A DNA stretch of 12,347 bases from a virus (lineage: Duplodnaviria > Heunggongvirae > Uroviricota > Caudoviricetes): positions 1 through 12,347 of the IMG/VR virus record IMGVR_UViG_2541047882_000003, one strand, 5' to 3'. Shown piece by piece: positions 1 through 12,347 of this stretch (within the stretch, counting starts at the first letter, position 1; each line of letters opens with the position of its first letter). Under the pieces are notes generated by a model that was given only the letters and a program-made list of their open reading frames with translations, was not told the origin of the DNA and did not search any database. A program made the translations under genes and the position numbers.

Positions 1-372
1 TTACTTCCTGCGTTTATCCTGCTTTGTATGCCCGTGCTGAATGCCCCGCAGTGGATCTTCTTTTTTCAGGTCGATCCCCATGTCCGTTAGTGTTTTTGTG
101 GCGGCGGTTCTTATGGCACAAATCAGGTCTCTTTCCGGTTCCCGGGTTATGGTTGCCTTCCGGATGCATGCCGTTCGTCGTTCCGTTACATACTGACGCG
201 CTTCATCACTTGCCGCCTGTTTCAGTAACTCACCCCAGCGATTAGCCGCCCGTCGCCATAAACCTTTCGCTTCCAGTTCTTCCGCTTTGTCATCATGCAC
301 CATAAGCATAATCCCATTGATACCTGTTAAATCTGAATGGTTGGTTTCTGTTCTTTTGATAATTTTCCGCAT
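1..372 (-). CDS. PerC-family-like small transcriptional regulator (paralog 1)
   Basis: Complete ORF of 123 aa (ATG as reverse complement of 370-372, TAA as reverse complement of 1-3). Motif DDKAEELEAKGLWRRAANRW matches the conserved core I associate with PerC/Pch activators and is shared with the 95-aa paralog at 4277..4564 (DSKAEELEAKGLYRRAAARW...CIR.A). No good SD at 372; alignment with the paralog suggests the real start may be the internal ATG at 303. Confidence 0.6.
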   Translation of the reverse strand: MRKIIKRTETNHSDLTGINGIMLMVHDDKAEELEAKGLWRRAANRWGELLKQAASDEARQYVTERRTACIRKATITREPERDLICAIRTAATKTLTDMGIDLKKEDPLRGIQHGHTKQDKRRK

Positions 373-387
373 AGCTTATTGTATGAC

Positions 388-399
388 AGTACTGTCCCA
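388..399. promoter_or_regulatory. 12-bp perfect palindrome GACAGTACTGTC in the 45-bp divergent intergenic region (candidate operator)
   Basis: Read directly: GACAGTACTGTC equals its own reverse complement, flanked by ATTGT...ACAAT. It lies between the divergent starts at 372 (-) and 418 (+). Confidence 0.35.
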
Positions 400-417
400 C
401 AATAAGGAGTTGCACGC

Positions 418-708
418 ATGAGAATGACCAGGCACAAAAAACAGATCCTTGAACTCTACAAACCTGAGTATCGCGATTGGGTGCGGGTGGAGGCTGGAGA
501 TCCACCTTTTGATGTTCGTGGTGTTACAGTGCTGCTCTATGGTTCCGAATATCAGCGATATCACATAGAGGCAACACGAAGGACGCTAAACGCTATGGTT
601 CGTGATAAGTTGCTGGAGCGTGTGAAAGTCCGTGAGCCACGTTTTGATGTGCGTATTGGTGGCGATGGTGCGCATTGCACGGTAATCCGCTATGGCCTGG
701 TAAGGTAA
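418..708 (+). CDS. hypothetical protein (96 aa)
   Basis: ATG at 418 preceded by a strong SD, AAGGAG at 405-410 (7-nt spacer). The ORF ends about 70 nt before a stem-loop plus T-run. No family recognised. Confidence 0.6.
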   Translation: MRMTRHKKQILELYKPEYRDWVRVEAGDPPFDVRGVTVLLYGSEYQRYHIEATRRTLNAMVRDKLLERVKVREPRFDVRIGGDGAHCTVIRYGLVR

Positions 709-738
709 GCCATCGGGTAAATCAGATGATTAAATCAC

Positions 739-760
739 CAGAATGTAAATTTACATTCTG
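739..760. repeat. 22-bp perfect palindrome CAGAATGTAAATTTACATTCTG between convergent genes
   Basis: Read directly; it is self-complementary over 22 bp. Could be a hairpin contributing to bidirectional termination or a protein-binding site. Confidence 0.5.
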
Positions 761-776
761 CCAGCCACCAGCTACC

Positions 777-803
777 CTCCTCAAAATTGAGGAGCCTTTT
801 TAT
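777..803 (+). terminator. candidate rho-independent terminator for the 418..708 gene
   Basis: 7-bp stem CTCCTCA/TGAGGAG (777-783 pairs with 788-794), 4-nt loop AAAT, then CC followed by TTTTT. Confidence 0.45.
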
Positions 804-810
804 CAACTGG

Positions 811-1101
811 TTACCGCCGTAACCGCTCCGGCTTCTTCCACTGGTAAGTCTTTTTCTCGCTCTCCCGGTACATCTGCACGCGGCGACGGTAGGCCAATAA
901 CTCGAGTACCCTGGTGCGTATGTCGCGCATATCCACTCCGTTAAGCTCAATACCGTCACGGCGCATCACCTCAGCCACCACACGCGCATAGTTCTCAGCG
1001 ATAACGCTGTCCGGCTGCGTGGCCTCCTGTTTGCCTGCTGGTGGTCTGATCCCGGCAATCTGGCGAATCATTTTGAGCATTTCGGCTTCGGTCATTGTCA
1101 T
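811..1101 (-). CDS. hypothetical protein (about 96 aa; alternative starts at 1095 or 1125)
   Basis: Long ORF 811..1125. GGAGG lies immediately upstream of the tandem ATGs at 1101 and 1095 (minus-strand sequence GGAGGCCATGACAATGACC), so I favour one of these over 1125. No family recognised. Confidence 0.5.
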   Translation of the reverse strand: MTMTEAEMLKMIRQIAGIRPPAGKQEATQPDSVIAENYARVVAEVMRRDGIELNGVDMRDIRTRVLELLAYRRRVQMYRESEKKTYQWKKPERLRR

Positions 1102-1390
1102 GGCCTCCAGAGGATGGGGAAACAATGCCGTAATTGTGGCGACTGATAACGGGAAGGTGAAGCGCGTTTAAGCTGGTGGATGTGGTGCCATGTTTCCCAC
1201 CAATGGTGGAAAAGCCCACCAGCGCAACGCAGGACGCATAAAACCATTGCGATGACTCATGACAGGGGGATAACCACAAAAACAACGTCAGCGGCGCGAT
1301 TCTGGCTGTTCCTGTCCGGGATGTGCATACGTATTACGTACGCAGTTAATCCGGCATAACGCATGACGTTGATGAAACGCCCCGATCATC

Positions 1391-1465
1391 GCGGGTCCTC
1401 CTGGATGGGTACCCTTACCGCGGGGCGACGGACGCGCGGAAAAAGGCTGGTTTTTGCATTTTCAT
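1391..1465 (+). other. cos-like site A (cosQ-like CGGGTCCTCCTGG, cosN-like dyad CCGCG-N10-CGCGG at 1418-1439); orphan, no terS downstream
   Basis: Alignable to the phage lambda cosQ-cosN junction as I remember it (lambda ACGGGTCCTTTCCGG...GTTACGGGGCGGCGACCTCGCGGG). The 36-bp core CCTTACCGCGGGGCGACGGACGCGCGGAAAAAGGCT is identical to inverted copy C at 4085..4170. Confidence 0.5.
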
Positions 1466-1865
1466 GGCGGCGGCAGCATGTGTGGTAATATATTGATAAT
1501 TAAAAGTTATTTCTGTTTTCACCTGTACAATCTTTTTTCTCCCCTGTCATTAGACCAGTTCGCAATCAATTGAAATATATAAATAAATCTGATTTTCACC
1601 TGCCAGATGGAGTTGCCAGTGTCAAATGTGAGCGGAAGCGGTGATGCTTATCACTGAATCATGCCGCATCACGATACCAGACTCCCGGTACCGCTGCGTG
1701 ATAACCCACAAGGCTGGTGGCGATGCGTTATGGTCCGTGCATTGCCATTCTCCTGGCCTGGTGGCATTATCCGGCATGAACGAGCGGTTATTCTCCGTAC
1801 TCTTAATCGTTGTTCATGGTTATTTTCTTTGTGGTAGCTGACTTCTTGATGTCCTTATCCTCCTG

Positions 1866-1890
1866 CCCCGTAATCACGGGGTATTTTTTT
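1866..1890 (+). terminator. rho-independent terminator (plus strand)
   Basis: CCCCG (1866-1870) / CGGGG (1877-1881) stem, 6-nt loop, followed by TATTTTTTT. The T-run is on the plus strand only. Confidence 0.5.
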
Positions 1891-2424
1891 ATCTGTGATT
1901 TGCTGTTCTTCGCTGTGTTGGTATGGGGAGTTCTGGCAATGGTTCAGGCCGTCGCTTTCCTGGTACGTGATTTTTTACGTTCATTATTGTGCTGGTGGCA
2001 GCGTCACGGTGTGTCACGACATGTCACCATCACGTCACGCTGATTGCGAAAGCCAGGATTAACCAGTACCGGAACGGGTAGCCCGGTGTATTGTTACCGT
2101 CCTGCCTGCTGGTGGAGTAATTGATAACGGTTATCATCAACGGGAGGGGCGGATCAAATCCCTGCAGTCCTGGCTGTCCGGGACCGCCCGCCTACCCTTG
2201 TTCACATCGCCGCAGGTTCGAAAACTTTTTTTTGGGAAGGTGTGCACAGACTTGATAGGTAAAACCTATCAGGTAAAGCCACGTCAAACCCGCGCCATTG
2301 CTGGCATCGTTAAAAAAACTCACTCCACCAGCAGGCTAAAAAACTGTGATTTTTCCAGCTTTTGGGGCTCAAAAAGGGCTCCCTAAAAAAACTCTCACAC
2401 TGTCGGAGGGGGCGGGAAATTTTC

Positions 2425-2640
2425 ACGGGTCCTTTCCGGGATCTGAAACACCGCGGGGCGGTAGACGCGCAGGATTTCACTATTTATGAAAATTTTTCAG
2501 GGGAAAAGCGTGTCGGTACTTCTCGCGCATAACTGTTTGTTTTTATTAAAATCAACCACCAGAAACATACGACATCATAAAGCCAAAAAATCCTGTTTTT
2601 TTGGCGTTTCATGTCGGAGGTGGTTTTTGATAATAAATTG
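2425..2640 (+). other. lambda-like cos site B (cosQ, cosN-like, cosB R3/I1-like elements); orphan, no terS downstream
   Basis: ACGGGTCCTTTCCGG at 2425-2439 is identical to the lambda cosQ 15-mer. After a 16-nt spacer comes CCGCGGGGCGGTAGACGCGC (lambda has GGGCGGCGACCT here). CTATTTATGAAAATTTT at 2480-2496 is identical to lambda positions just right of cosN. Further lambda-cosB-like text follows (CATAACT..GTTTTTATTAAAAT, then a dyad). The ORF at the Nu1-equivalent position is only 25 codons and unrelated to Nu1. Confidence 0.65.
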
Positions 2641-2756
2641 GTGGATTAATGTTAATAAAAATGTTTTTACTACCTGATGGAAACAACCGGAAACGTGCCG
2701 GAGAAATTACGGCAACAGAAAGGTGAGTGACAGCCGCGCAATTATTGAACAAAACT

Positions 2757-2953
2757 GAGAAAGGATCTGATAACGTCATTTTTGGCCCAAAATGCCTACT
2801 GTCAGATCCTTTCTTTTTTTGATGATTTTACGATTAAACAATGAGTTACAGAGAAGAAGAACGGATCTGACTTTTCCCGAAAAATTTTCATAAACAGTTA
2901 AGAATTGCGCGTACCCGTACCCCCGGCGCTTAAGGTTCCGGGAAGGACCCGCC
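2757..2953 (-). other. lambda-like cos site D, inverted relative to B (cosQ-like, cosN-like, R3-like, distal 13-bp inverted repeat)
   Basis: On the minus strand: GCGGGTCCTTCCCGG (reverse complement of 2938-2953), a GC dyad GCGCC..GCGC (reverse complement of 2905-2933), CTGTTTATGAAAATTTTTCG (reverse complement of 2878-2897, against lambda CTATTTATGAAAATTTTCCG), TCCGTTCTTCTTC..TAACT (against lambda TCCGTTCTTCTTCGTCATAACT), then a 13-bp perfect inverted repeat AGAAAGGATCTGA (2758-2770) / TCAGATCCTTTCT (2802-2814) resembling the lambda GAAAGGAAACGACAG...CTGTCGTTTCCTTTC dyad. Confidence 0.55.
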
Positions 2954-3067
2954 GGAGATAGCTACCATAAGGCGTAATTAAATATCCGTGGATGTGCCAC
3001 GGAACAACCAGCTGAATACAGGTCAGCGTGATGACGGGAAATAAAGAGAATGGTTGCGAATCCTCCA

Positions 3068-3092
3068 CCTGGTGAATCTCCTGCACTACCTG
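3068..3092. repeat. 25-bp direct repeat copy 1 (CCTGGTGAATCTCCTGCACTACCTG); duplicate of the terS 3-prime end
   Basis: Exact 25-bp match to 3444..3468, which encodes the last 8 codons of the terS-like gene. Copy 1 is not in an intact gene. Confidence 0.85.
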
Positions 3093-3364
3093 TCATTTTT
3101 GCGCAAATACCCCTGGCATTTCTAAGCATGATCAACCTGATCATTGTTCGCGGTTTTTACGTGGCAAGGCCAGTAATTACGGGGCTTACATCAATGTTTA
3201 TTCCGCCCATCTCTGCGCAAAACAACTTAACAAACCTTAACATCACAGGCGGAACCATTGCGCAAATCTGGAGGCTTACCGCACGCACCAGCCTGATACA
3301 TTGCCAGAATGAACGAGGTGCGACACAATGTGTGTGCATGTCTTACTCATTGAACCTCAATCAA

Positions 3365-3397
3365 GGCGCATCCTTAGCGGTGCGCTTTTATTTTTTT
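3365..3397 (+). terminator. candidate rho-independent terminator (plus strand)
   Basis: GCGCA (3365-3369) pairs with TGCGC (3380-3384), with possible extra CC/GG pairs, followed by TTTTATTTTTTTG. Confidence 0.4.
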
Positions 3398-3435
3398 GTC
3401 GTTCCCTGCTGGTGGATGTTTTCCGGTACCGCGAA

Positions 3436-3945
3436 TTATTCCCCCTGGTGAATCTCCTGCACTACCTGCGGCGTGCTGTCGTGCCAGTCGTTAGCCTGTA
3501 TCACTCTGGTAGTAATTTGCCTGCACAGGTCATCAATAATCTGCCTGACGCGGTTTACTGCGTTCTGATTGATGCCTGCATCGTGCGCCAGAATGTCGGG
3601 GAGTTTTGCCAGTTCCTCGCTTAAGATTTTCCCAAAAATAACCAACTCCCTGCGCACATCCACGGCGGGGATAAGTTCAGCCGTTTCCTGCTCGAACTTA
3701 AGGCGCTCACGCTCAGACTGGTACCAGGCTTTACGGCTTTGTGGATCCATGTCTTCGAGTGATGCGGGGGCGGGTATATTCATGAATGCGCTGATTATAT
3801 CCGTCAGTCGGTACAGCTTTAATTTTTCATGCCCTCCGGCTGGCTGAATGTCCTTTAGCCTTTTCGCTACTGTCTGGCGGCAAACTCCCGCCAGTTCTGC
3901 GAGTTGATTGATATTAAGTTTCAGGTTTTTAAGCTCCCGATCCAT
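3436..3945 (-). CDS. phage small terminase subunit, lambda Nu1 family (TerS-like); longest ORF extends to 3984
   Basis: N-terminal LNINQLAELAGVCRQTVAKRLKD...EKLKLYRLTDIISAF aligns with the lambda Nu1 winged-HTH region (VNKKQLADIFGASIRTIQNWQEQ...NEVLYDSAAVIKWY), and the length is similar (169-182 aa against 181). GGAGG lies 4 nt upstream of the ATG at 3945, so I favour that start. No large terminase ORF follows. Confidence 0.7.
   Translation of the reverse strand: MDRELKNLKLNINQLAELAGVCRQTVAKRLKDIQPAGGHEKLKLYRLTDIISAFMNIPAPASLEDMDPQSRKAWYQSERERLKFEQETAELIPAVDVRRELVIFGKILSEELAKLPDILAHDAGINQNAVNRVRQIIDDLCRQITTRVIQANDWHDSTPQVVQEIHQGE
3444..3468. repeat. 25-bp direct repeat copy 2 (within the terS 3-prime end)
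   Basis: Exact match to 3068..3092. Confidence 0.85.
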
Positions 3946-4084
3946 TCGTCCTCCGGTAGTTTTAAATGCGTATCGTGCGCTCATCTTTCAGTGGGTTAAA
4001 AGTGTTCTGTATGTTGAACAAAAAACACCCCAAATTAACATAGTAAAAATATATTTCATTTTAATTCAACATGTTGGAAAGATG

Positions 4085-4170
4085 ATGATGACGGATGAAA
4101 ATGTAAAAATTAGCCTTTTTCCGCGCGTCCGTCGCCCCGCGGTAAGGCCACCCCTCCGGAAGGACCCGTA
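4085..4170 (-). other. cos-like site C (inverted copy of A) about 140 bp upstream of the terS-like gene
   Basis: On the minus strand: ACGGGTCCTTCCGG (reverse complement of 4155-4168), then CCGCGGGGCGACGGACGCGCGG (reverse complement of 4120-4141), then AAAAAGGCT..ATTTTTACATTTTCAT. This is the lambda arrangement cosQ-cosN-cosB followed by Nu1, with similar spacing to the terS start. Confidence 0.55.
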
Positions 4171-4191
4171 AAAAAAGCCGGAGTGTTCCGG
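4169..4191 (-). terminator. rho-independent terminator after the PerC-like/FinO-like operon
   Basis: On the minus strand GCCGGAACACTCCGGC (6-bp stem, 4-nt loop) is followed by TTTTTTT, about 85 nt after the stop of 4277..4564. Confidence 0.6.
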
Positions 4192-4276
4192 CTTCGTCTG
4201 TGTATGTGCGCATATGCAGGATTTTATGTTATCCGCCCACGGGAGTGATGGTCATTTTTCAGGATAATATCCGGCA

Positions 4277-4564
4277 TCACTGGTTACCGCCAGGCTGCTT
4301 CGGGTAGTTCCGCCAGACGGATTTACCCGCGTCTTCCATCCCCATCACCGCATGAGTGCGGTTTACAGCCTCTTTCAGTGCCCCGAAGTTATCCGCCATA
4401 ACGGGTGGGCGTGCTGCCCTGCGGATGCATTCCGCGCGACGCTTTGCCACCTGTTCGCGCTCCTTATCGGTGTTCACCAGCTGCATGACCTCAGCCCACC
4501 GCGCCGCCGCTCTCCGGTACAGGCCTTTAGCCTCCAGTTCTTCCGCTTTGCTGTCACGAATCAT
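4277..4564 (-). CDS. PerC-family-like small transcriptional regulator (paralog 2)
   Basis: 95 aa with DSKAEELEAKGLYRRAAARWAEV, matching the paralog at 1..372. Its start overlaps the stop of the upstream gene (ATGA at 4561-4564), indicating translational coupling. Confidence 0.6.
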   Translation of the reverse strand: MIRDSKAEELEAKGLYRRAAARWAEVMQLVNTDKEREQVAKRRAECIRRAARPPVMADNFGALKEAVNRTHAVMGMEDAGKSVWRNYPKQPGGNQ

Positions 4565-5097
4565 GCGCCTGTCTTCTCCTTTGTCGCCTGACGTTTGCGC
4601 TTTTCATTCAGTGCTGCCAGCCGCGTTTCTGCCTCCTGCTGTTCCTGTGGTGTCACTTCCCCACATGGCTGGCCTTTCAGGTCGTAACGTGTGCCACCAG
4701 CCATTAAGGCGCGGTAATAGCGCGGAGACTGCGCATAAGATGCCAGCGTCGCACGTAATGCCCCCGGCCCGAATGTCAGCCCCCTGGCGGCGATATCCTG
4801 TATCAGGTCGTCGAATATCCCCACCTTAAGCGGCTTCGGTGCTTTATGGCTGAATAAGTCAGGCCACATCTCAGTGAGGCGGTTAACGCGTCGGCGGTTT
4901 TTGCGCTGCCTTTTGGTCATATGCTGCCACGGTGTCGCCCCTGCGGTCTTCTGTTTGCGGCTCTGCTGTGCGTTCTGATTATCGGGTATCACTTTATGCG
5001 CCGATGTGGTTTTATCCTGCTCTTGTGCCGCCTGCGTCGTTTTCTGCGGCGTGCCGTAAATGCCTTTCGGTTTTCGGTTAATGGTCAGCTTTGTCAT
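4561..5097 (-). CDS. ProQ/FinO-domain RNA-binding protein
   Basis: 178 aa. PLKVGIFDDLI and LRATLASYAQSPRYYRALMAGGTRYDLKGQPCGEVTPQEQQEAE align closely with the E. coli ProQ N-terminal FinO-like domain (PLKIGIFQDLV...LRSALRLYTSSWRYL..GATRVDLDGNPCGEL) as I remember it. It is preceded by a basic, Q/K-rich N-terminus. Confidence 0.8.
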   Translation of the reverse strand: MTKLTINRKPKGIYGTPQKTTQAAQEQDKTTSAHKVIPDNQNAQQSRKQKTAGATPWQHMTKRQRKNRRRVNRLTEMWPDLFSHKAPKPLKVGIFDDLIQDIAARGLTFGPGALRATLASYAQSPRYYRALMAGGTRYDLKGQPCGEVTPQEQQEAETRLAALNEKRKRQATKEKTGA

Positions 5098-5211
5098 GCC
5101 TTCCCCTGTAATTACGCTGTTCGCTGTTGTGAATTAAAACGGTATGTTATCCCCGTACGGGTCATCGTGCTGGCTTGTCTGTTGTTTTGCCCTGTTCAGT
5201 GCGTCAGTGGC

Positions 5212-5559
5212 CTAGCCCTGTTGACCTTTTTTGCCGCCCGGTCGCGCCGTTCGCGCACTGATTACGCTGTCTGCAATAACCTGCCAGCCCTGCCGCGTTT
5301 CCCCGTTCTGGCCTGTCCACTGGCTTACCTGCATGTTACCCGCCACGCTCACAAGTTCGCCTTTCTGGTGCTTTGCCAGTGCATCGGCCTGTCTGCCAAA
5401 TGCCAGGACGGATAACCACATCGTCGCCGTTCCGTCATCTGCCTGGCTGCACGGCAGGGGAACCGCCATACTCGCCATCGCCATTTGTGTCCCTTTGCTG
5501 GTGGTCTTTAACTGCGGGTCAGCCACCAGCCGCCCGTAAGCCGCTATCTGTGCTGTCAT
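5212..5559 (-). CDS. single-stranded DNA-binding protein-like (OB fold, no acidic C-terminal tail)
   Basis: 115 aa. IAAYGRLVADPQLK and TMWLSVLAFGRQADALAKHQKGELVSVAGNMQVSQWTGQNGETRQGWQVIADSV align with the E. coli SSB core (ILVGNLGQDPEV...[52 protein letters not shown]). GGAGAG lies 9 nt upstream; the start overlaps the upstream stop (ATGA). Confidence 0.7.
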   Translation of the reverse strand: MTAQIAAYGRLVADPQLKTTSKGTQMAMASMAVPLPCSQADDGTATMWLSVLAFGRQADALAKHQKGELVSVAGNMQVSQWTGQNGETRQGWQVIADSVISARTARPGGKKGQQG

Positions 5560-5906
5560 GCTGTATGCTCTCCGTTTTTAACGTTGATGGTTGTCACCTG
5601 TTCCGCTGTGCTGTTAGCCGGATACCATGCAAGCGTTCCCGGTTCATCTGAAAGAATGAATTTTGTGTCAGGCAAATACAGGCATTCGCAATATCCCTCT
5701 GCGCTGTGATGTGGTGTCATTCCCATATCACCAGTGAGTACCGGTAATATTTCAGAGTAAACCTCAGAATCACCGGAATAAAACACATCGCAAATCGCCC
5801 ATGCAGCAACCGGACTCCACCACTCGCCGCAATCGTCATTCCGGAATCTTGCCCACCAGCCAGGAACAGCCGGAGAAATGCTTTTTGGTATGGCTTCAAG
5901 AAACAT
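5556..5906 (-). CDS. hypothetical protein (116 aa, Trp-rich), translationally coupled to the SSB-like gene
   Basis: ORF with GAGGTG 7 nt upstream of the ATG at 5906. Its stop overlaps the SSB-like start. No family recognised. Confidence 0.55.
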   Translation of the reverse strand: MFLEAIPKSISPAVPGWWARFRNDDCGEWWSPVAAWAICDVFYSGDSEVYSEILPVLTGDMGMTPHHSAEGYCECLYLPDTKFILSDEPGTLAWYPANSTAEQVTTINVKNGEHTA

Positions 5907-5982
5907 AAAAACACCTCAATTTTTGTATATCTACAGAACCGTGTGGGTTACACCCGGCCTTTTTTCATCCATTACAGTGATA

Positions 5983-6133
5983 TTTTGCGGGTTATAATCG
6001 CGCTTTTGCGGGTTATTTAGGCCCATTTGCGGGTTATTTGGGGTATTTTGCGGGTTACGATTTTTCTGTCATTTCTTTAATAATCATATGGATACTGACT
6101 TATCCACAGAAATAACCCGCATAACCCGCAAAA
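5983..6133. repeat. iteron array (TTTGCGGGTTA x4 direct at 21-22 bp spacing, plus 2 inverted copies) with an AT-rich spacer; candidate replication origin
   Basis: Direct copies of TTTTGCGGGTTAT at 5983-5995, 6004-6016, 6025-6037 and 6047-6058. AT-rich stretch 6061-6100. Inverted copies ATAACCCGC (6112-6120) and ATAACCCGCAAAA (6121-6133). Located immediately downstream of the replication-protein stop at 6159. Confidence 0.6.
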
Positions 6134-6158
6134 TTTTCACCCTACACGCGAGAAAAAA

Positions 6159-8282
6159 TTAATCTTCTTCGCTTTCTGGCTGGAACATCAGCACGTAAAA
6201 AACATGCTGCTTCCCCCCAATCCTGCCGAGCGCCTTTTTCTTGTAACGGCGGTCGTTACCCTTTTCCAGCATCCCCGCCGCATCAAGCGCCCTTGCAAAA
6301 TGCGACGGATTAAATCCCTGTGCTATCTCACCCTCAAATACATGCGGGAACGTGTAAAAACGGAACTCGTCATCTTCGTTTCTGATACTCCCCTTTCTGT
6401 ATCCGGCAAGCTCTTTAATCGGTAAATCACGCTCGTCGGTGTTGGGCCACGGAAGGTATCTGCTGAATCCGAACGACGCTAAAAAAGCCTCTGCCTGTTC
6501 AACCATCTGTTTAAACTCCCTGTTACCCGTGCCGAATTCCTTCACCCAGGCATTAAAATTATGCTGAATGGCATCGCGGCATTCCTGCTCATCCCAGCCA
6601 GTAACATGACCGGAAAGCACAAGCGCGGCCTCCAGTATGGCGAAACGCTCACCCACACGGTGTACCTGCTCGCCGTAGCTCTCCGGTATCAGGTTGCGCC
6701 ACCGTTCTCGGCATGACCTTACCGTGTCCTTTGCCTCCTGCTGGTGGTCTGCCAGCCATTTAACCCATTCACGACCCGCCGCCCCGTGATTTTCTGTCCA
6801 GGCATCTTTTAACGCGTCTGCGTGCGCCTTTCCGGTGCTGTATTCGTGAAATTGTGTGGCTTTTTCCATCGGCACGTTAAGCAGGCGGACAAGCTGCCCC
6901 GCCTTGACTTTTATCCCCTCCGTTTTGAGGAATGTTTCAACGTCCATTTCTCCGGTACTGATTGCCACCGTTCTCCAGTGTTTTATCTCCCTGTTGCCGC
7001 CGTCCTTCGCCCCCTGTAATTTCCCGGAACCGTTAAACAGCGTATAAGCAGACGTTGACACCTCCCGCGCGTTTCCGGCCTGGCCTATTTCATCCAGGGG
7101 TAACAGCCCGTCGTTGTGTGCCTCTGCCTCGTTGGCGATACCTAACGCTGTACCGTACCAGGTCAGCCGTTGTGCGTCCGGCTCTCCCCATAAACTTGAT
7201 GCGATGTTCTGTGTGGTGGTTTTCCCTGCCGATGACTGTTCGAAAAGATGTACCCCGAAGCCGTCAGCACCCACCAGCCCGATTAATGGTGCAGATAACG
7301 ATACCGCCACACCCAGCATCATGGACGGATTACCACCAGCCAGCCGCGCAACGGTATCGCGCCAGCCTTCCGCCGTTCCTGCCACGGAATAGCCATTAAC
7401 AGCGGCAGTTTTTCCGGTAAACAGAATCGGTTTTTCAGACTCACCAATGACCGAACCGTCCGGCATGATGTACGCGCCAAAATGCCAGCCCGTTGTTGTG
7501 CTTAACTGCCATTCCTCATGGTTTCCGCTTAACTGCATCCAGTCAGCCAGGATAGCCCTGTATTTGCCGTTGGTTGTCACGTTCAGGCCGTGGTCTTTCA
7601 GCAACCGCCAGCCGTCACGGTCGCCAATGCCACCGCACGGAATCGCCATTGTGATGACTTCATGATTTGCTGGCTTTTTCCAGCGCATCACGCGGTAATG
7701 CTCTTTACCGATTGTCCCCGTTCCCAGTAGTTCAAGCGGGGAACATAACCACGTCTCAGGCCGGATAATTTCGCCTGACTGCTTGTCAACTTTTGGCGTT
7801 ACCCAGAAAACACCATCGGCGCGGCTTTCAACGCGGGGCTTTAATTCATCATCGCTATAGCTTCCTGTGGCTTTTTTCTTTAAGGGCAACACCAGACTTT
7901 CCCCGCGCTCGTATTCGTCTTTCAGCCGGGCAAGCTGTGGTGTCCAGTCCTCCAGTAAATCGCCGTTCTCGTCACAAAAACAGGCTTCCTTAACACCAGC
8001 CACTGCCAGCAGGGTTTCAATCTGTAGCGCCAGTTTGTCATCCAGTTTTCCGGCACGTCTGACGATGGCGCGTGACCGACCCTCATCCACAATACGCAGG
8101 TTTTCCAGATTACCCAGGTCACGCCGTCCGAGATAAACAGGTGGTATTTTGTCGCCGCGCTTTCTGGCTTCTCCGCCCTGCATGTAATGCTCTGCGTGGC
8201 TGTATGCGTCATCCCCCGCAAAAATCACTGCATCCTCGCCTTTATCTTTCGGTAACAGTTTTACGTTCGGTGCCAGTTTCAT
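6159..8282 (-). CDS. replication protein with P-loop NTPase domain (putative primase/helicase-type initiator of the element)
   Basis: 707-aa ORF. Walker A-like SSAGKTT and Walker B-like LLPLDE are visible. Its start overlaps the upstream stop (ATGA at 8279-8282) and an iteron array follows its stop. Assignment to a specific primase/helicase family is not verified. Confidence 0.75.
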   Translation of the reverse strand: MKLAPNVKLLPKDKGEDAVIFAGDDAYSHAEHYMQGGEARKRGDKIPPVYLGRRDLGNLENLRIVDEGRSRAIVRRAGKLDDKLALQIETLLAVAGVKEACFCDENGDLLEDWTPQLARLKDEYERGESLVLPLKKKATGSYSDDELKPRVESRADGVFWVTPKVDKQSGEIIRPETWLCSPLELLGTGTIGKEHYRVMRWKKPANHEVITMAIPCGGIGDRDGWRLLKDHGLNVTTNGKYRAILADWMQLSGNHEEWQLSTTTGWHFGAYIMPDGSVIGESEKPILFTGKTAAVNGYSVAGTAEGWRDTVARLAGGNPSMMLGVAVSLSAPLIGLVGADGFGVHLFEQSSAGKTTTQNIASSLWGEPDAQRLTWYGTALGIANEAEAHNDGLLPLDEIGQAGNAREVSTSAYTLFNGSGKLQGAKDGGNREIKHWRTVAISTGEMDVETFLKTEGIKVKAGQLVRLLNVPMEKATQFHEYSTGKAHADALKDAWTENHGAAGREWVKWLADHQQEAKDTVRSCRERWRNLIPESYGEQVHRVGERFAILEAALVLSGHVTGWDEQECRDAIQHNFNAWVKEFGTGNREFKQMVEQAEAFLASFGFSRYLPWPNTDERDLPIKELAGYRKGSIRNEDDEFRFYTFPHVFEGEIAQGFNPSHFARALDAAGMLEKGNDRRYKKKALGRIGGKQHVFYVLMFQPESEED

Positions 8283-8593
8283 TTTGCTTTTCCCCGTTCA
8301 CGAATAATTTCACGTACTGCCTTAATGCGTTCCATACCTGTAACGCGCATGATTCTGTCGATGTCGCTTAAGTTCGCTGGTGGTGCTTTGCTTACCAGGG
8401 TGAATTCACTCTCAAAACGCATATGTGACGACACGCAGGGATGCGCATAACCTTCGCGAATATAAGTCACGCGAAAATCGTCAACGGTTTTTATCGTTAT
8501 TCGTCCACCATATTTATCTTTGAAAATATCGCCGGGGCGGATTTCAGGCCGAGCGGGGCCGCTGGCAGTAAAGCCAGAAATTTTCTGTTTCAT
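8279..8593 (-). CDS. hypothetical protein (104 aa), coupled to the replication protein
   Basis: ORF with ATG at 8593; 4-nt overlap with the downstream rep start. No family recognised with confidence. Confidence 0.6.
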   Translation of the reverse strand: MKQKISGFTASGPARPEIRPGDIFKDKYGGRITIKTVDDFRVTYIREGYAHPCVSSHMRFESEFTLVSKAPPANLSDIDRIMRVTGMERIKAVREIIRERGKAK

Positions 8594-8598
8594 GGTTT

Positions 8599-8832
8599 TT
8601 ATTTCCCGGTGTGTTGTTCTTTATATCTGTCGTGCAAAAGATCTATTTCTTGTAGTTCCATTATTACCGGCTCAAGAAGCGTTATTAACGCCGTCGCAAT
8701 ATTGCTGTTGCGTTTATCTCTTTCATTATCGCCAAGCGTTCCAAGCCATAAGCGCAATATTTCAAGCATGTTTTCACTGTAAGCAAGAGCACGGTATGCA
8801 CGGTCTACTGTGTCATTGTAAATATCACACAT
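8599..8832 (-). CDS. hypothetical protein (77 aa)
   Basis: ATG at 8832 with GGAGG 9 nt upstream; overlaps the upstream stop by 8 nt (ATGTGTGA). Confidence 0.55.
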   Translation of the reverse strand: MCDIYNDTVDRAYRALAYSENMLEILRLWLGTLGDNERDKRNSNIATALITLLEPVIMELQEIDLLHDRYKEQHTGK

Positions 8833-9070
8833 GGCTTACATCCTCCGGGAATTTTCTTCTGTAACGCGCCTCTGCCACATATTCCGCATAGTCCGACGCA
8901 ATATTGAGAATCTCCGCACCCTCTGACCTGTAGCCACTGGTATTGATAAGAAAAAATGCGGCTTTTATCATGTCAGCAACGCCCAACAATGCGTCTGCTT
9001 CGTGTTCCGGTGCGCCATCAAATTCCTGTTTCAGGGCATTAAAACGATCATCACGCATAACCCCCCCCAT
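8825..9070 (-). CDS. hypothetical protein (about 82 aa from the ATG at 9070; track shows an alternative TTG start at 9085)
   Basis: The first in-frame ATG is immediately followed by the G8 tract (ATGGGGGGGG on the coding strand). Overlaps the end of the upstream ORF in another frame. Confidence 0.5.
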   Translation of the reverse strand: MGGVMRDDRFNALKQEFDGAPEHEADALLGVADMIKAAFFLINTSGYRSEGAEILNIASDYAEYVAEARYRRKFPEDVSHV

Positions 9071-9290
9071 TTTCACAATCAGCAATCAGGATAGCCCTGG
9101 CCTCATTCAGTGCCATATCAGCACTAAATTGCATAACAGCCAGTGAGTGAGGAACGAAAGCCCCGGCATATTCTGTTTCGCTGGTGGCGTACTTATGCGC
9201 CTTGTCTGCGATAACAGAAATATCAATCAGCGCATCAATCAGTGTTTTTATAGCTTCGGCGGCTGCGTCCGGACGGGTGTTATTGCACAT
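9051..9290 (-). CDS. hypothetical protein (79 aa)
   Basis: ATG at 9290 with AGGAGG upstream; the start overlaps the stop of the 68-aa ORF (ATGTGCAATAA). Its C-terminus is encoded across the G8 tract. Confidence 0.55.
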   Translation of the reverse strand: MCNNTRPDAAAEAIKTLIDALIDISVIADKAHKYATSETEYAGAFVPHSLAVMQFSADMALNEARAILIADCENGGGYA

Positions 9291-9486
9291 GGCGTACCTC
9301 CTGACGAATACGGGCGGCGAATACCATCACGCAACCAGCCGGGGATTGCTGGCGTGCTTCCTGTTCGCTGGTGGCCTCGATGGTAATCACGCGCGGTTGT
9401 GCCGTGCTCAGGGCGATAAAACGCCAGATGTATTTATTCAGGTTGTGCGAGTCCCGCCCTTGCTGGTGTGTGGTATAATTTCTCAT
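9280..9486 (-). CDS. hypothetical protein (68 aa), first gene of the leftward replication operon
   Basis: ATG at 9486 with GAGGT 6 nt upstream. It is the in-frame C-terminal part of the spurious 371-aa track ORF. Its stop overlaps the next start. Confidence 0.5.
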   Translation of the reverse strand: MRNYTTHQQGRDSHNLNKYIWRFIALSTAQPRVITIEATSEQEARQQSPAGCVMVFAARIRQEVRHVQ

Positions 9487-9581
9487 AGCTACCTCGATAC
9501 TCTCGTTATCGTTGGTGGTTAGAGGCTGCGAAAGGACGGCAATCCTTTCCAGCCTCGTTTGCATTGAGTGATAGTTACTCA

Positions 9582-9664
9582 ACTGGATTCCAGTATAATC
9601 ACTAAGTGGAATCCACTTCAAGCATTTTGTTTTGGTCTTTTTCGTGTATACTGGATTCCAGTAA
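9582..9664. promoter_or_regulatory. divergent control region with three odd-length palindromes (candidate operators) overlapping -10-like hexamers
   Basis: ACTGGATTCCAGT at 9582-9594 and again at 9651-9663 (CTGGA-T-TCCAG), and GTGGAATCCAC at 9607-9617. TATAAT at 9593-9598 and TATACT at 9647-9652 on the plus strand. Lies between the minus-strand operon start (9486) and the plus-strand small gene (9683). Confidence 0.45.
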
Positions 9665-9682
9665 TCACAAAGGAAACCAGAA

Positions 9683-9862
9683 ATGGAAAGAGACCATATC
9701 AATAACAAATCACAGAAATTACAGGCTCGCGCCCCGCATGAAGTTGTTGAGGCAATGGAGCAAGTCAAAGAAACGGGCGAGAGTACTGCGCAGTTTATCG
9801 TTACAGCCATGCGTGGCGAGATCAAACGCCGCCAGCGCCGCAAGGCCAAAGAGCAGGAGTAA
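9683..9862 (+). CDS. small ribbon-helix-helix-like DNA-binding protein (59 aa); candidate repressor
   Basis: Not in the supplied track (below its length cutoff). ATG at 9683 with AGGAA 7-8 nt upstream; TAA at 9860-9862. The translation MERDHINNKSQKLQARAPHEVVEAMEQVKETGESTAQFIVTAMRGEIKRRQRRKAKEQE has a strand-helix-helix pattern typical of Arc/CopG-type proteins. Confidence 0.5.
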   Translation: MERDHINNKSQKLQARAPHEVVEAMEQVKETGESTAQFIVTAMRGEIKRRQRRKAKEQE

Positions 9863-9919
9863 CCATCACCAGCGCCGTGGTGCGGTGAACTGTGGCGCAC
9901 AGGGTTATAGGTATCTACG

Positions 9920-10117
9920 ATGACTGACAAATCATTAAAGAAATTATCCTCATCCAGGAAAAAACAACGCAAAAACGCGGTAAGAGAACATGAACAGGAA
10001 AGATTCGCGCCATGTGCGTTTGTCCTTGAAAAGTTCCTTAAAGAGTACAGGCGCACAAAAATGGGATCGCATGCCTGGAAAACATCGCAGCATGGCGATA
10101 CTAAAGAGCAGGAATAG
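9920..10117 (+). CDS. hypothetical small basic protein (65 aa)
   Basis: ATG at 9920 with AGG 8 nt upstream; Lys/Arg-rich. Followed about 100 nt later by a plus-strand terminator. Confidence 0.4.
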   Translation: MTDKSLKKLSSSRKKQRKNAVREHEQERFAPCAFVLEKFLKEYRRTKMGSHAWKTSQHGDTKEQE

Positions 10118-10220
10118 CCCACCAGCAAGCCAGCACACTGATCACATTGCCCACCAGCCGCAAATGTGGCATTGTTGATTATGCTCATGCGTTGGCGATA
10201 ACGTGTAGCTTGTGTCGAAG

Positions 10221-10248
10221 GGCCACCGTAGCGGGTGGCCTTTGTTTT
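10221..10248 (+). terminator. rho-independent terminator for the plus-strand small genes
   Basis: GGCCACC (10221-10227) / GGTGGCC (10234-10240) stem followed by TTTGTTTT. Confidence 0.5.
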
Positions 10249-10399
10249 GCCTGTTATCCGGCAATTGTGGCGCTTCGCCACACGGTTGATATAATTCTCC
10301 TGCACTGATCCATTTTTTTCGCAGCAGGTTAATTGTTCGCAAGGGCGCTCCGGCAACGGGGCGCTTTTTGTTATGTTCATCGCGTTACGCCTCACACCA

Positions 10400-10606
10400 T
10401 TACGCAGCCGTTCCGCGCGCTTCTTCCTCGCGCTCTTTCAGCCAGGCCAGCACTTCATCTTCATACCAGCCAACACGACGCAGACCGATTTTGAAGCCTT
10501 TCGGGAATTTTCCGGCGTTGATCATGTCCTGTAGCGAACTGTCTGCCTTGATGCGCAGAATATTTTTTACTTCCTGACGGGTAAGTATTTTTCTGATTGT
10601 TTCCAC
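10400..10606 (-). CDS. alpA: AlpA-family phage transcriptional regulator
   Basis: 68 aa. ILTRQEV..IL........DMINAGKFPK...GLRRVGWYEDEVLAWL matches the AlpA pattern (LRL..V......A..T.Y.W......P...........VGW.E.E...WL). GAGGT about 8 nt upstream of the ATG. Position relative to a P4-type int is typical. Confidence 0.75.
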   Translation of the reverse strand: METIRKILTRQEVKNILRIKADSSLQDMINAGKFPKGFKIGLRRVGWYEDEVLAWLKEREEEARGTAA

Positions 10607-10677
10607 TATGTTTTACCTCGTTAATCCGGCGTATTCCGGTGATAAATACGGTAAAACAGGGCAGGGCGGGAAAAACA

Positions 10678-10714
10678 GTACCCACCGTTTTAAAACGGTA
10701 CCCACTGTTTTTTA
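10678..10714. promoter_or_regulatory. repeats upstream of alpA: 16-bp perfect palindrome ACCGTTTTAAAACGGT and direct repeats GTACCCAC(C/T)GTTTT
   Basis: Read directly in the alpA 5-prime region. Candidate operator/promoter elements. Confidence 0.35.
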
Positions 10715-10740
10715 TCTCATTGATTACGCTTTTCTTTCTG

Positions 10741-10771
10741 CAAAAAAATAGCGACCGCAAGGGGCCGCTAT
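10741..10771 (-). terminator. rho-independent terminator after the int/76-aa ORF transcript
   Basis: On the minus strand ATAGCGGCCCCTTGCGGTCGCTAT forms a hairpin followed by TTTTTTT, 6 nt downstream of the stop at 10777. Confidence 0.5.
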
Positions 10772-10776
10772 TGTGA

Positions 10777-11007
10777 TTACCGTTTCCACTTCTTAGGTCG
10801 CCCACCGCATTTAAGGCTGGTGGGCCTCAGCACCTTGTCGATGCTTTCAGCCAGATTTTTCGATGCGCCACGCGAGCGTAAAAAACTGACTACCTCGTGT
10901 TTTGTGGGGGCTGTTGATTTGTCTTCCGGATCGTATGTTGACCAGAATTCACGATTTGCCATTAACGCCAGTTGCAGCCCTTCGCCGTAGGCGGTGGTAT
11001 TTTGCAT
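10777..11007 (-). CDS. hypothetical small protein (76 aa) between int and alpA
   Basis: ORF with a basic C-terminus (GGRPKKWKR). Weak, AT-rich region upstream of the start. No family recognised. Confidence 0.45.
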   Translation of the reverse strand: MQNTTAYGEGLQLALMANREFWSTYDPEDKSTAPTKHEVVSFLRSRGASKNLAESIDKVLRPTSLKCGGRPKKWKR

Positions 11008-11105
11008 AATAGAATTTTCATATACTCCGGCCTTGTCGTTAAATTTGTGGCAATTATACGATGGTTTGGCATGGTTTGCATCGCTTTTACTGGCTTTTTA
11101 TACAG

Positions 11106-12347
11106 TTACACGGCACGGATACCCCTTTTACCACTGGCTATGGTCACTCCGGTAGCTGCGGCCTCTACAAATTCCCCCCACCAGCGCATAAGCACCACGC
11201 GCTTTTCCAGGTAGTTACTTCGGTTATATGCTCGCCTTACCTCGTTTGTGTCCACGTGTGCGAGTGCGGCCTCGATTACGTCCGGCTCGAATCCTTCCTC
11301 GTTCGCTGCTGTACTGAATATGGCGCGTAATCCGTGAGACACCAGCACACCAGCGTAACCCATCCGGCGCAATGCGGCGTTAGCTGTCTGGCTGCTCATT
11401 GGCAGCATTGGATTTTTAAGGCTGGGAAAAACGTGTTCCCTGTGTGCGCTGATTGGCTTCATGGTTTCCAGTACAGCCATAGCCTGACCGCAAAGGGGGA
11501 TCACGTGGTCACGGCGCATCTTCATGCGTCCGGCTGGAATCGTCCAGGTTTCGGCATCGAGATCTATTTCTTCCCAGCGTGCGGCGGCTGCTTCGGCTGG
11601 GCGTGCTACGGTCAGCAGTTGCCACTCAATCAGCAATCTGGTTTGCCGTTCTATGCTGGCGACCGATAAATCGTGCATTAGCTGCGGTAGCTGTTCCGGT
11701 CGGATGGTTGGCATGTGCTTTTTGGTGGGTGAGGGGAATGCCTTGCGGACGTTCGCGGCGGTGTTGATGTCAATCAGCCCACTGTTGGCAGCAAAATCCA
11801 TCACTTCATTGATGCGTTGTAAAACGCGTTTCAGAGTTTCCAGGTTGCCGCGTGCTTTAATGGGTGTGAGTATCTCAACAAAGCGGCGAGCTGTGAGGGT
11901 ATCTATTGGCGTGTTTCCGATGTACGGGAATACGTATTTTTCCAGGGATCGCCAGATATCCTTAATCGTGTTGTAAGCCAGATTCTGGCCTTTTTTCATC
12001 TCGTACCAGTCCGAGGCAACTTTTTCGAACGTGTTGCCCTTTTTCCGACTCTCTGCTTCACGTTTCCGGCGTTCGTGGTCCTGTGGGTCAACTCCCTTCG
12101 CTATGAGTGACCTGTATTCATTCCGTCGTTCTCTGGCATCGGACAGGGAAACATCATTCAGCGATCCGAGGCTGATGATAGTCCGTTTTTTATCTGCCGG
12201 GCGGTAGTACGTAAAACGCCAGATTTTTGATCCGGAGGGTTTCACCAGAAGAAATAATCCTCCACCATCCTGCAGGGTGTATTCCTTTTCCCCTGGTCGT
12301 GCGTTTTTGATCTCCGTGATGGTTAGTGGAGTGGTTTTTCGTGCCAT
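11106..12347 (-). CDS. int: tyrosine-type site-specific integrase, P4-like
   Basis: 413 aa. N-terminal DGGGLFLLVKPSGSKIWRFTYY arm-binding-like region and C-terminal HGLRAIFST ... AALAHVDTNEVRRAYNRSNY catalytic region (H-x-x-R and the terminal Tyr) are typical of P4-family integrases. The ATG is the last three bases of the window, so the upstream region and att site are not visible. Confidence 0.9.
   Translation of the reverse strand: MARKTTPLTITEIKNARPGEKEYTLQDGGGLFLLVKPSGSKIWRFTYYRPADKKRTIISLGSLNDVSLSDARERRNEYRSLIAKGVDPQDHERRKREAESRKKGNTFEKVASDWYEMKKGQNLAYNTIKDIWRSLEKYVFPYIGNTPIDTLTARRFVEILTPIKARGNLETLKRVLQRINEVMDFAANSGLIDINTAANVRKAFPSPTKKHMPTIRPEQLPQLMHDLSVASIERQTRLLIEWQLLTVARPAEAAAARWEEIDLDAETWTIPAGRMKMRRDHVIPLCGQAMAVLETMKPISAHREHVFPSLKNPMLPMSSQTANAALRRMGYAGVLVSHGLRAIFSTAANEEGFEPDVIEAALAHVDTNEVRRAYNRSNYLEKRVVLMRWWGEFVEAAATGVTIASGKRGIRAV

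Follow-up and report, generated by a model that had tools for sequence, protein, structure and literature searches.

The DNA analyzed here (the "window") is the whole stretch of 12,347 nucleotides at positions 1 to 12,347 of IMG/VR record IMGVR_UViG_2541047882_000003, which is a phage satellite of Escherichia coli of the phage-inducible chromosomal island (PICI) type. The subject of this report is a block on its minus strand. Read from position 4195 down to 3436, the block comprises an intrinsic terminator, a cosQ-like element, a cosN-like element, a cosB-like region with repeated R-like elements, the sequence GGAGGA, and a gene for a 169-amino-acid (169-aa) protein that resembles phage small terminase subunits (TerS). 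The cos site just upstream of this terS-like gene (3436-3945), all of whose elements lie on the minus strand, is termed "cos C". The window contains four cos sites, which represent at least three phage types, and cos C is the only one with a terS of its own. Feature coordinates are collected in Table 1.

Judged by homology, cos C is a real cos site. The 235 nt upstream of the gene were 72-76% identical to the regions preceding terS in phages PhiR40_1, PhiR55_1, vB_EcoS-606R10, phi458, and mEp460, with E-values down to 4e-23; a 221-nt upstream region matched at this value, and the cosQ-cosN-cosB stretch was 72-74% identical to the phage DNA. A cosQ, a cosN flanked by symmetric CG-rich bases, and a cosB follow one another in the order and with the spacing of lambda-type cos sites. 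The cosQ-like element (ACGGGTCCTTCCGG) resembles lambda cosQ (ACGGGTCCTTTCCGG) at the lambda right end; it is near-identical in related phages and satellites, where it is found at an equal distance from cosN. Two references served to predict the cohesive end and the nick positions by alignment, namely the lambda left end (GGGCGGCGACCT followed by CGCGGG) and the opening of the cdtI phage record (GGGCGGGAGCGT followed by CGCGG). With this placement, the ATG at 3945 falls at bp 193 of the predicted mature end, compared with bp 191 for the start of lambda Nu1. Among related cos-terS units (60 distinct ones), the ATG fell at bp 186-201, as the cohesive end began 185-200 nt 5' of it. The lambda geometry is matched almost to the base, and the claim of a preliminary description that a satellite cos is followed by a small-terminase homologue at a lambda-like distance was borne out.

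The exact cosN-like 22-mer was found in only four IMG/VR contigs, all of them satellite-sized, and only 18 complete E. coli genomes carried a match of at least 90% identity in the cosN search. A scan with a 14-mer of cosN returned at least 119 contigs, most of which were random GC-rich matches, and was uninformative. The broader cos family is common, occurring at roughly 77-85% identity in 2,167 complete E. coli genomes (ca. 40%).

The protein was assigned to a family using profile searches. Pfam DUF1441 (PF07278) matched with 121 bits (cutoff 35.1) and E = 4.7e-35, and PHROG 141 ("terminase small subunit", phrog_141) matched with E = 2.2e-55; NCBIfam held no model for the protein. Because of these two matches and that of the upstream DNA, the joint observation of cos and terS is far beyond chance. 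A tblastn search against 50,697 phage records matched 60 phages. Identity was 57-63% for 606R10, 569R4, mEp460, and Ayreon, whose TerS is annotated as such, and for PhiR55_1, whose corresponding gene carries no annotation; among these, 606R10, PhiR55_1, mEp460, and Ayreon stood at 60-63%. Identities were lower for Shiga-toxin (Stx) phages and VT1-Sakai (ca. 48%), Gifsy-2 (40%), and cdtI (35%). The gene was annotated as intact in all listed E. coli copies.

The Pfam match covered residues 23-161 of a mechanically defined open reading frame (ORF) of 182 aa (3984-3436), which begins at an earlier ATG. This ORF is probably too long, and its first 13 codons are probably not translated: no homologue aligns with the 13 extra residues, every homologue aligns from the second ATG, and the DNA of the extension aligns with non-coding phage sequence. 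In an E. coli copy with 99.9% identity, the RefSeq gene starts at 3945 (169 aa), and a CCGGAGG motif ahead of that ATG is conserved in phage and satellite homologues. The gap of "about 140 bp" between cos and gene that had been given beforehand holds for the distance from cosN to the ATG at 3984, but the real start is probably 3945. At the other end of the gene, a 29-nt direct repeat (3064-3092 and 3440-3468, 28 of 29 positions identical) duplicates the last ten terS codons 376 bp 3' of the gene and resembles a scar left behind when recombination or insertion took place at the terS 3' end.

Three putative R elements with lambda-like spacing were recognized between cosN and the gene, and phage 606R10 carries ATGTCGAA and TTCGACAT at the matching places. 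Covariation between protein and site was assessed across IMG/VR loci and other fetched loci, which together gave 62 distinct cos-terS sequences. Cysteine at TerS residue 22 accompanied the R core TCAACAT in 35 of 36 cases, and histidine accompanied TCGACAT in all 26; the pairing is consistent in 61 of the 62 units, although terS and the R sites are physically adjacent and linkage contributes to the association. Residue 22 is located in the second helix of the predicted helix-turn-helix (HTH), i.e. the recognition helix. The single-base difference in the R core recurs in both repeat orientations, which would be the pattern expected of a protein-site pair. The terS-like protein would bind the R elements of its own cosB, and the match between recognition helix and repeats fits the packaging-specificity role that had been proposed for it.

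An AlphaFold2 model of the protein (predicted local distance difference test score, 83.5) featured a winged HTH spanning residues 1-55, then one long helix (68-89), three helices in the C-terminal half (94-152), and a disordered tail (155-169). The protein had been called a Nu1-family TerS. Profile searches do place it in a TerS family (DUF1441/PHROG 141), but there was no match to Pfam Phage_Nu1 (PF07471) at E ≤ 1, and lambda Nu1 scores 333 bits on the same model. Weak cross-hits were reciprocal, with Nu1 matching PHROG 141 at 5.6e-08 and the terS-like protein matching PHROG 57 at 3e-06. When the family was compared to Nu1 in hhalign, only the HTH and wing were aligned (ca. 45 residues, E = 0.0025, probability 12%), and homology on that result alone was rejected as too weak. 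Nu1 appears to be a distant relative, and "Nu1-family" is right only loosely, in the sense of a predicted shared DNA-binding fold and a shared genomic role. The best Foldseek matches were MerR-type regulators (E ≥ 0.06), and the Pfam scan gave weak, sub-threshold HTH matches; the DNA-binding domain of lambda Nu1 has itself been described as MerR-like in fold. Identity with Rpp was rejected at the sequence level, as neither the protein nor its 39-sequence family profile matched an Rpp or TerS among all PDB sequences. No RppC match was obtained by sequence, profile, or fold search, and the 169-aa protein falls outside the Rpp proteins as delimited by similarity to RppA or RppC and a length of 139-154 aa.

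The absence of a large terminase subunit (TerL), also part of the preliminary description, was upheld. A tblastn search of the window with four gpA-type TerLs gave a best E-value of 0.1, and no TerL was found in the chromosomal flanks in E. coli STEC313. In the phages matched above, the DUF1441 gene lies between cos and a 700-aa TerL with GpA_ATPase and GpA_nuclease domains; the window gene is not directly upstream of such a TerL. Because the satellite makes no TerL, portal, or capsid, a helper must supply all three.

Alignment of satellite and phage proteins separated three C-terminal classes. Class i, that of the window, ends in IQANDWHDSTPQVVQEIHQGE; class ii, that of related satellites, ends in MVKNDVVNEVAKQA; and class iii, that of phages, ends in the acidic sequence TEAGADDEEELQQEE. 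TerL neighbors were surveyed at 80 IMG/VR loci. Within 30 nt downstream, a full TerL began for 42 of the 43 class iii genes (40 of these 42 loci had at least 1.5 kb of downstream sequence), and the remaining locus had no downstream sequence. The C-terminal class tracks phage versus satellite lifestyle, not the type of DNA-binding domain, which would be unexpected if a satellite merely copied the TerL-binding domain of its helper.

Among relatives, the DNA-binding half has been exchanged independently of the C-terminal half. A prophage TerS (P0008, locus L133) and a satellite TerS (P0005, L127) are 98% identical over residues 1-94 (synonymous divergence, dS, 0.11), and the cosB regions of the two loci are essentially identical; the prophage protein has the phage C-terminus, over which dS is saturated. 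The comparison indicates a recent satellite-phage exchange of cos and DNA-binding module with a breakpoint at the domain boundary (ca. residue 94). Satellite L135 combines a DNA-binding half of the His type with a class ii C-terminus, and protein P0003 has a window-type N-terminal half joined to a class ii C-terminal half. The window protein's N-terminal half (residues 1-94) is 69-78% identical to phage TerS, and the long central helix contains the nearly invariant stretch RKAWYQSERERLKFEQE. Ratios of nonsynonymous to synonymous divergence (dN/dS) were 0.07-0.13 for the N-terminal half (compared to satellite and phage copies) and 0.26-0.29 for the C-terminal half (compared to class ii satellites); both halves of the gene are under purifying selection.

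In a collection of 5.8 billion proteins, the nearest relatives were other satellite proteins. Their islands carry an integrase, AlpA or HTH_17, DUF4222, a D5-type primase or AAA_25 helicase, and a single-stranded DNA-binding protein (SSB), followed, sometimes after a 638-aa ClpP-capsid fusion, by cos, DUF1441, and a 93-aa gene of PHROG 1561. No TerL was found in these contexts. One group of the islands occupies the tRNA-Pro/yejO locus shared with the window, and the cos-DUF1441 pair is retained in satellites of three backbones. Some related satellites are located inside the terL of a mEp460-like prophage and join it at TerL residue 326, where the ATPase and nuclease domains meet. Three such IMG/VR loci (L139, L147, and L152) carry a class ii DUF1441 gene together with SSB, the ClpP-capsid fusion, and a pair of cos sites, and they abut a gpA-type terL from residue 326 onward; in L152, the prophage terS and TerL residues 1-65 were found on the opposite side of the satellite. 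L139 and L147 were considered as cases of a satellite-class TerS beside TerL, and this was rejected: they are satellites inserted in prophage terL, with the TerL match starting at residue 326. All three look like helper-embedded PICIs, which have been described (PMC10111431) and which the terL-inserted satellites resemble. The location of these satellites within mEp460-like prophage terL points to the mEp460-like group for helpers. The helpers are thus likely to be mEp460-like lambdoid phages with a gpA-family TerL rather than lambda itself, and the earlier proposal of lambda-like helpers needs correction in this respect.

It was also considered whether the 93-aa ORF after terS in other satellites is an N-terminal fragment of TerL, and this was rejected; a 104-aa ORF of the window (811-1125, minus strand) is no TerL fragment either. 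The latter matched PHROG 1561, had no Pfam match, and was 76-89% identical to the 93-95-aa gene directly 3' of terS in other DUF1441-bearing satellites. In the window, it and terS are 2.3 kb apart, and the interval holds the three extra cos sites.

The reading preferred here, to which a probability of ca. 0.7 is assigned, is that the block is the DNA-packaging module of a PICI-type satellite, with cos and terS derived as one block from a mEp460-like lambdoid phage. The terS-like protein would read the R elements of the satellite cosB, and the gpA-family TerL of the helper would be brought to the satellite cosN. Terminase would then cut cosN to yield 12-nt cohesive ends (predicted sequence GGGCGACGGACG), and satellite concatemers would be pumped into helper capsids. 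We infer the binding to DNA, the cleavage at cos, and the identity of the helper. TerL might be engaged directly, via the C-terminal half, or indirectly, in mixed oligomers that the protein forms with TerS of the helper; the direct route, through the helical core at residues 94-152, is considered somewhat more likely because the protein is full-length and its C-terminal half is conserved.

Several results weigh against this reading. In a search for helpers by cosN, the same cosN was present in no phage or prophage of INPHARED or of the complete E. coli genomes. No experimental work on DUF1441 proteins was found, the three papers retrieved that name DUF1441 being phage-genome descriptions. Of the class i and ii loci that had 1.5 kb or more of sequence downstream, 0 of 17 had an intact TerL next; the sole TerL match in this set was that of L147 (from residue 326), and L139 is alike, with only 1.1 kb downstream. 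Conservation of a TerL-binding surface is unproven because the satellite C-terminal classes were never found beside an intact TerL; helices 94-152 are homologous to those of the phage class but only 50% identical (residues 95-152), and the tail is unrelated. The specificity of the module is not unique to satellites, since phage L133 shares its DNA-binding half and cosB with satellite L127. A strong terminator lies 5' of cos, and the scan gave no convincing promoter for terS. Two further satellites, L004 and L005 (IMG/VR 2721755711_000005 and 2802429224_000008), have four cos sites and no terS. Their integrases are 99% identical to that of the window, and the primase of L005 is 97% identical to the window primase, that of L004 matching only over its first 137 residues. 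Because this lineage shares the window integrase and lacks terS, the gene must be dispensable for it. Satellite L006 has an unrelated integrase (22% identity) and an identical cos C-terS cassette. The cassette is therefore both optional and mobile, and it probably moves among satellite backbones by recombination at the shared cosN.

An unlikely but serious alternative is that the protein acts as an Rpp-like adaptor. It would not recruit TerL itself; rather, it would form mixed dimers or oligomers with the DUF1441 TerS of the helper via its DNA-binding and central-helix region, such that the satellite protein gives cosB specificity and the helper TerS gives the TerL-binding tail. Phage packaging would be poisoned as well. 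Mixed assembly is plausible given the similarity of the N-terminal half to phage TerS and the near-invariance of RKAWYQSERERLKFEQE, and there is precedent in the Rpp proteins of cos PICIs (PMC6739421). With differing DNA-binding domains, satellites still have class i or ii and phages still have class iii, and one class ii satellite sits inside a prophage whose TerS is of class iii. On the other hand, the window protein is full-length (169 aa vs. 163 aa in phages), its helices 94-152 are homologous to those of the phage proteins and have conserved motifs that include LPDIL and IIDDL, its C-terminal half is constrained (dN/dS 0.26-0.29), and neither its sequence nor its predicted structure matches RppC.

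Decay offers another explanation, in which cos C and terS are leftover phage DNA acquired via recombination at cosN, and the satellite is mobilized through its other cos sites by helper terminase. Satellites L004 and L005, which have the window integrase (and, in L005, the primase) without terS, would be compatible with this, as would the three further cos sites of other phage types; the stump of a cdtI-type terS after cos A (described below) shows that such genes decay here. However, the ORF is intact in all listed copies, both halves are under purifying selection, an identical cassette is carried by a satellite with an unrelated integrase, and the cos-DUF1441 pair occurs on three backbones; the selection and the recurrence on unrelated backbones make a remnant very improbable. 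The odds are slighter still that the protein is an HTH transcription regulator of satellite or helper whose adjacency to cos is incidental. The annotation of the family as a terminase small subunit, its position between cos and TerL in phages, and the R repeats at lambda-like cosB positions all count against a regulator, which would draw on the sub-threshold HTH matches and the MerR-type top Foldseek results at E ≥ 0.06.

An extension of the packaging reading is possible, though it is put forward only tentatively: the satellite DUF1441 proteins may represent a second and independent path from TerS to a packaging adaptor that is Rpp-like or "orthogonalized". It is suggested by the satellite-only C-terminal classes, which are kept while the DNA-binding half and cosB swap with phages at residue ca. 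94. If true, the adaptor would ride on the helper TerS, or it would bind TerL via a different surface and out-compete the phage subunit. The window, with four cos sites and one reader of its own, would then be a multi-helper packaging platform.

Table 1. Positions of features of the cos C-terS block and of the satellite backbone in the window
Feature	Position	Strand	Remark
Intrinsic terminator, 9-bp stem GAAGCCGGA/UCCGGCUUU, loop ACAC, U-run	4195-4170	minus	between perC-family gene and cosQ
cosQ-like ACGGGTCCTTCCGG	4169-4156	minus	directly after terminator
cosN-like 22-mer CCGCGGGGCGACGGACGCGCGG	4142-4121	minus	by alignment
Predicted 12-nt cohesive end GGGCGACGGACG	4137-4126	minus	flanks CG and CGCGG
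cosB-like region	4120-4005	minus	aligns with cosN-terS interval of phages and satellites
R-like ATGTTGAAT inside palindrome CAACATGTTG	4076-4064 (R-like element 4072-4064)	minus	
A/T-rich spacer, 22 nt	4063-4042	minus	separates first two R-like elements
R-like ATGTTAATT	4041-4033	minus	
Inverted R-like TTCAACAT	4018-4011	minus	
Promoter-like TTGAAT, 18-nt spacer, TACTAT	4069-4064 and 4045-4040	minus	8/12 consensus positions, poor spacing
13-codon upstream ORF extension	3984-3946	minus	
Shine-Dalgarno GGAGGA	3954-3949	minus	precedes 169-aa start
terS-like gene, 169 aa, DUF1441/PHROG 141	3945-3436	minus	
Iterons	5984-6057		beside DUF927 primase gene
DUF927 primase, 707 aa	6159-8282		
AlpA	10400-10606		
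Integrase	11106-12347		

The RNA of the terminator upstream of cos C folded with -14.4 kcal/mol (z = -3.55), and 0 of 200 shuffled sequences folded as well; a consensus scan listed no minus-strand terminator. A minus-strand promoter between cos C and the gene had been suggested in the preliminary description. Its hexamers are present, but the call is weak; they scored below threshold in the promoter scan, in which promoter-like sites were no commoner than in shuffled sequence. The -35 hexamer lies inside the first R-like element, and the -10 hexamer, which overlaps the second, is not conserved in relatives.

The remaining cos sites of the window are of other kinds. The site at 1393-1660 (plus strand), termed cos A, shares the predicted cohesive end of cos C. 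As far as the ribosome-binding site, its cosB hardly differs from the one in phage cdtI, and a 12-codon stump of a cdtI-type terS comes next (GTG at 1619 to TGA at 1657); it looks as if cos A has been kept for the TerS of a cdtI-type helper. Two lambda-like cos sites, at 2427-2500 (plus) and 2876-2950 (minus), face each other 374 nt apart, and their predicted ends differ (GGGCGGTAGACG in the first and GGGGTACGGGTA in the second). The first resembles the cos of Stx1-converting and lambda-like phages; the second resembles those of Gifsy-1 and SerU-LTIIb and has the R3-like sequence CCGTTCTTCTTC. No rpp or terS gene comes after either of them. Along the island, the four cos sites are oriented forward, forward, reverse, and reverse, as they are in satellites L004-L007.

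Assignment of the window to the PICIs was based on a size of ca. 10-15 kb without structural or lysis genes, on an integrase, an AlpA-type regulator, and a primase or replicase with an origin, and on site-specific insertion. The window contains an integrase, AlpA, a primase with iterons beside it, and SSB; DUF4222 and a ProQ/FinO protein are further backbone genes. The probable replication origin consists of three iterons spaced by 21 nt and containing TTTGCGGGTTA, with an inverted copy (6110-6132), just 3' of the DUF927 primase gene. A tRNA-Pro gene adjoins the element. The element in E. coli STEC313 is bordered by yejO/narP/ccm and, at its opposite end, by tRNA-Pro/yejM, and phage morphogenesis genes are absent there. 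Neither a tRNA scan nor an Rfam scan gave a match in the window itself. The module is rare, being found in 27 of 5,426 complete E. coli genomes, 18 of which carry the full kilobase, and near-identical elements are present as 12-13-kb contigs in IMG/VR. Two PerC-family activator genes (Pfam PF06069) were identified on the minus strand, at 1-372 (E = 7.5e-23) and at 4277-4564 (E = 7.5e-36), the latter directly upstream of the terminator-cos-terS block. The satellite with these genes was found mostly in Shiga-toxin-producing E. coli, with meat and livestock as the sources.

To date, cos satellites of E. coli have been understood via one mechanism, the action of Rpp on lambda or phi80 TerS. The module described here indicates that a second lambdoid family, with DUF1441 TerS and gpA-type TerL, is parasitized by satellites that carry a full-length TerS homologue and a matching cosB. 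It offers a testable system for the split of packaging specificity between the DNA-binding and TerL-binding halves of TerS, and for the exchange of these halves between satellite and helper. The hosts include Shiga-toxin-producing strains and two PerC-family genes are aboard, so the mobilization route is also relevant to how such genes spread. The parts that merit most attention are the four-cos architecture and the C-terminal classes peculiar to satellites.

That satellite TerS homologues redirect helper packaging is established for SaPIs, the pathogenicity islands of Staphylococcus aureus. The TerS proteins of SaPIs and PICIs (e.g. SaPI1, SaPIbov1 TerS-S, and PmCI172 terS) are likewise satellite TerS homologues without a TerL and are thought to steer the helper terminase; those that have been characterized serve headful (pac) packaging and belong to unrelated TerS families, whereas the window has a cos system with a cognate cosB. 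TerS homologues were noted in maps of Gram-negative PICIs in 2018 (PMC6092414), and a TerS homologue is a core component of the PICI model in SatelliteFinder (PMC10085698). Work on Rpp has revealed E. coli PICIs of the cos type that have several cos sites and, after cos1, a small winged-helix protein (PMC6739421), and Rpp forms mixed oligomers with lambda TerS (PMC6739421, PMC9026076). PICIs of the EcCICFT073 type share the layout of a cos followed by a gene for a small winged-helix protein, with their own cosB reader and multiple cos sites. Rpp proteins are 139-154 aa long, derive from or resemble Nu1-type DNA-binding domains, and act only as heterodimers with lambda or phi80 TerS, and the associated cosB has no R repeats; the window protein, by contrast, belongs to another family, in which it is a TerS homologue of full length, and R repeats are retained in its cosB. 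From lambda gpNu1 (Phage_Nu1, PHROG 57) it differs in having no Phage_Nu1 match and only weak PHROG cross-hits. The closest likeness is to the TerS of mEp460-like phages (mEp460, Ayreon, vB_EcoS-606R10, and PhiR55_1), which belongs to the same family and has a homologous cosQ-cosN-cosB, the same cos-to-ATG spacing, and the same R architecture; in those phages TerL is immediately 3' and the tail is acidic (DDEEELQQEE), whereas the satellite has no TerL and another class of sequence at residues 95-169. The idea of packaging by a satellite TerS is already known; here, the putative specificity factor is a full-length DUF1441 TerS homologue instead of Rpp.

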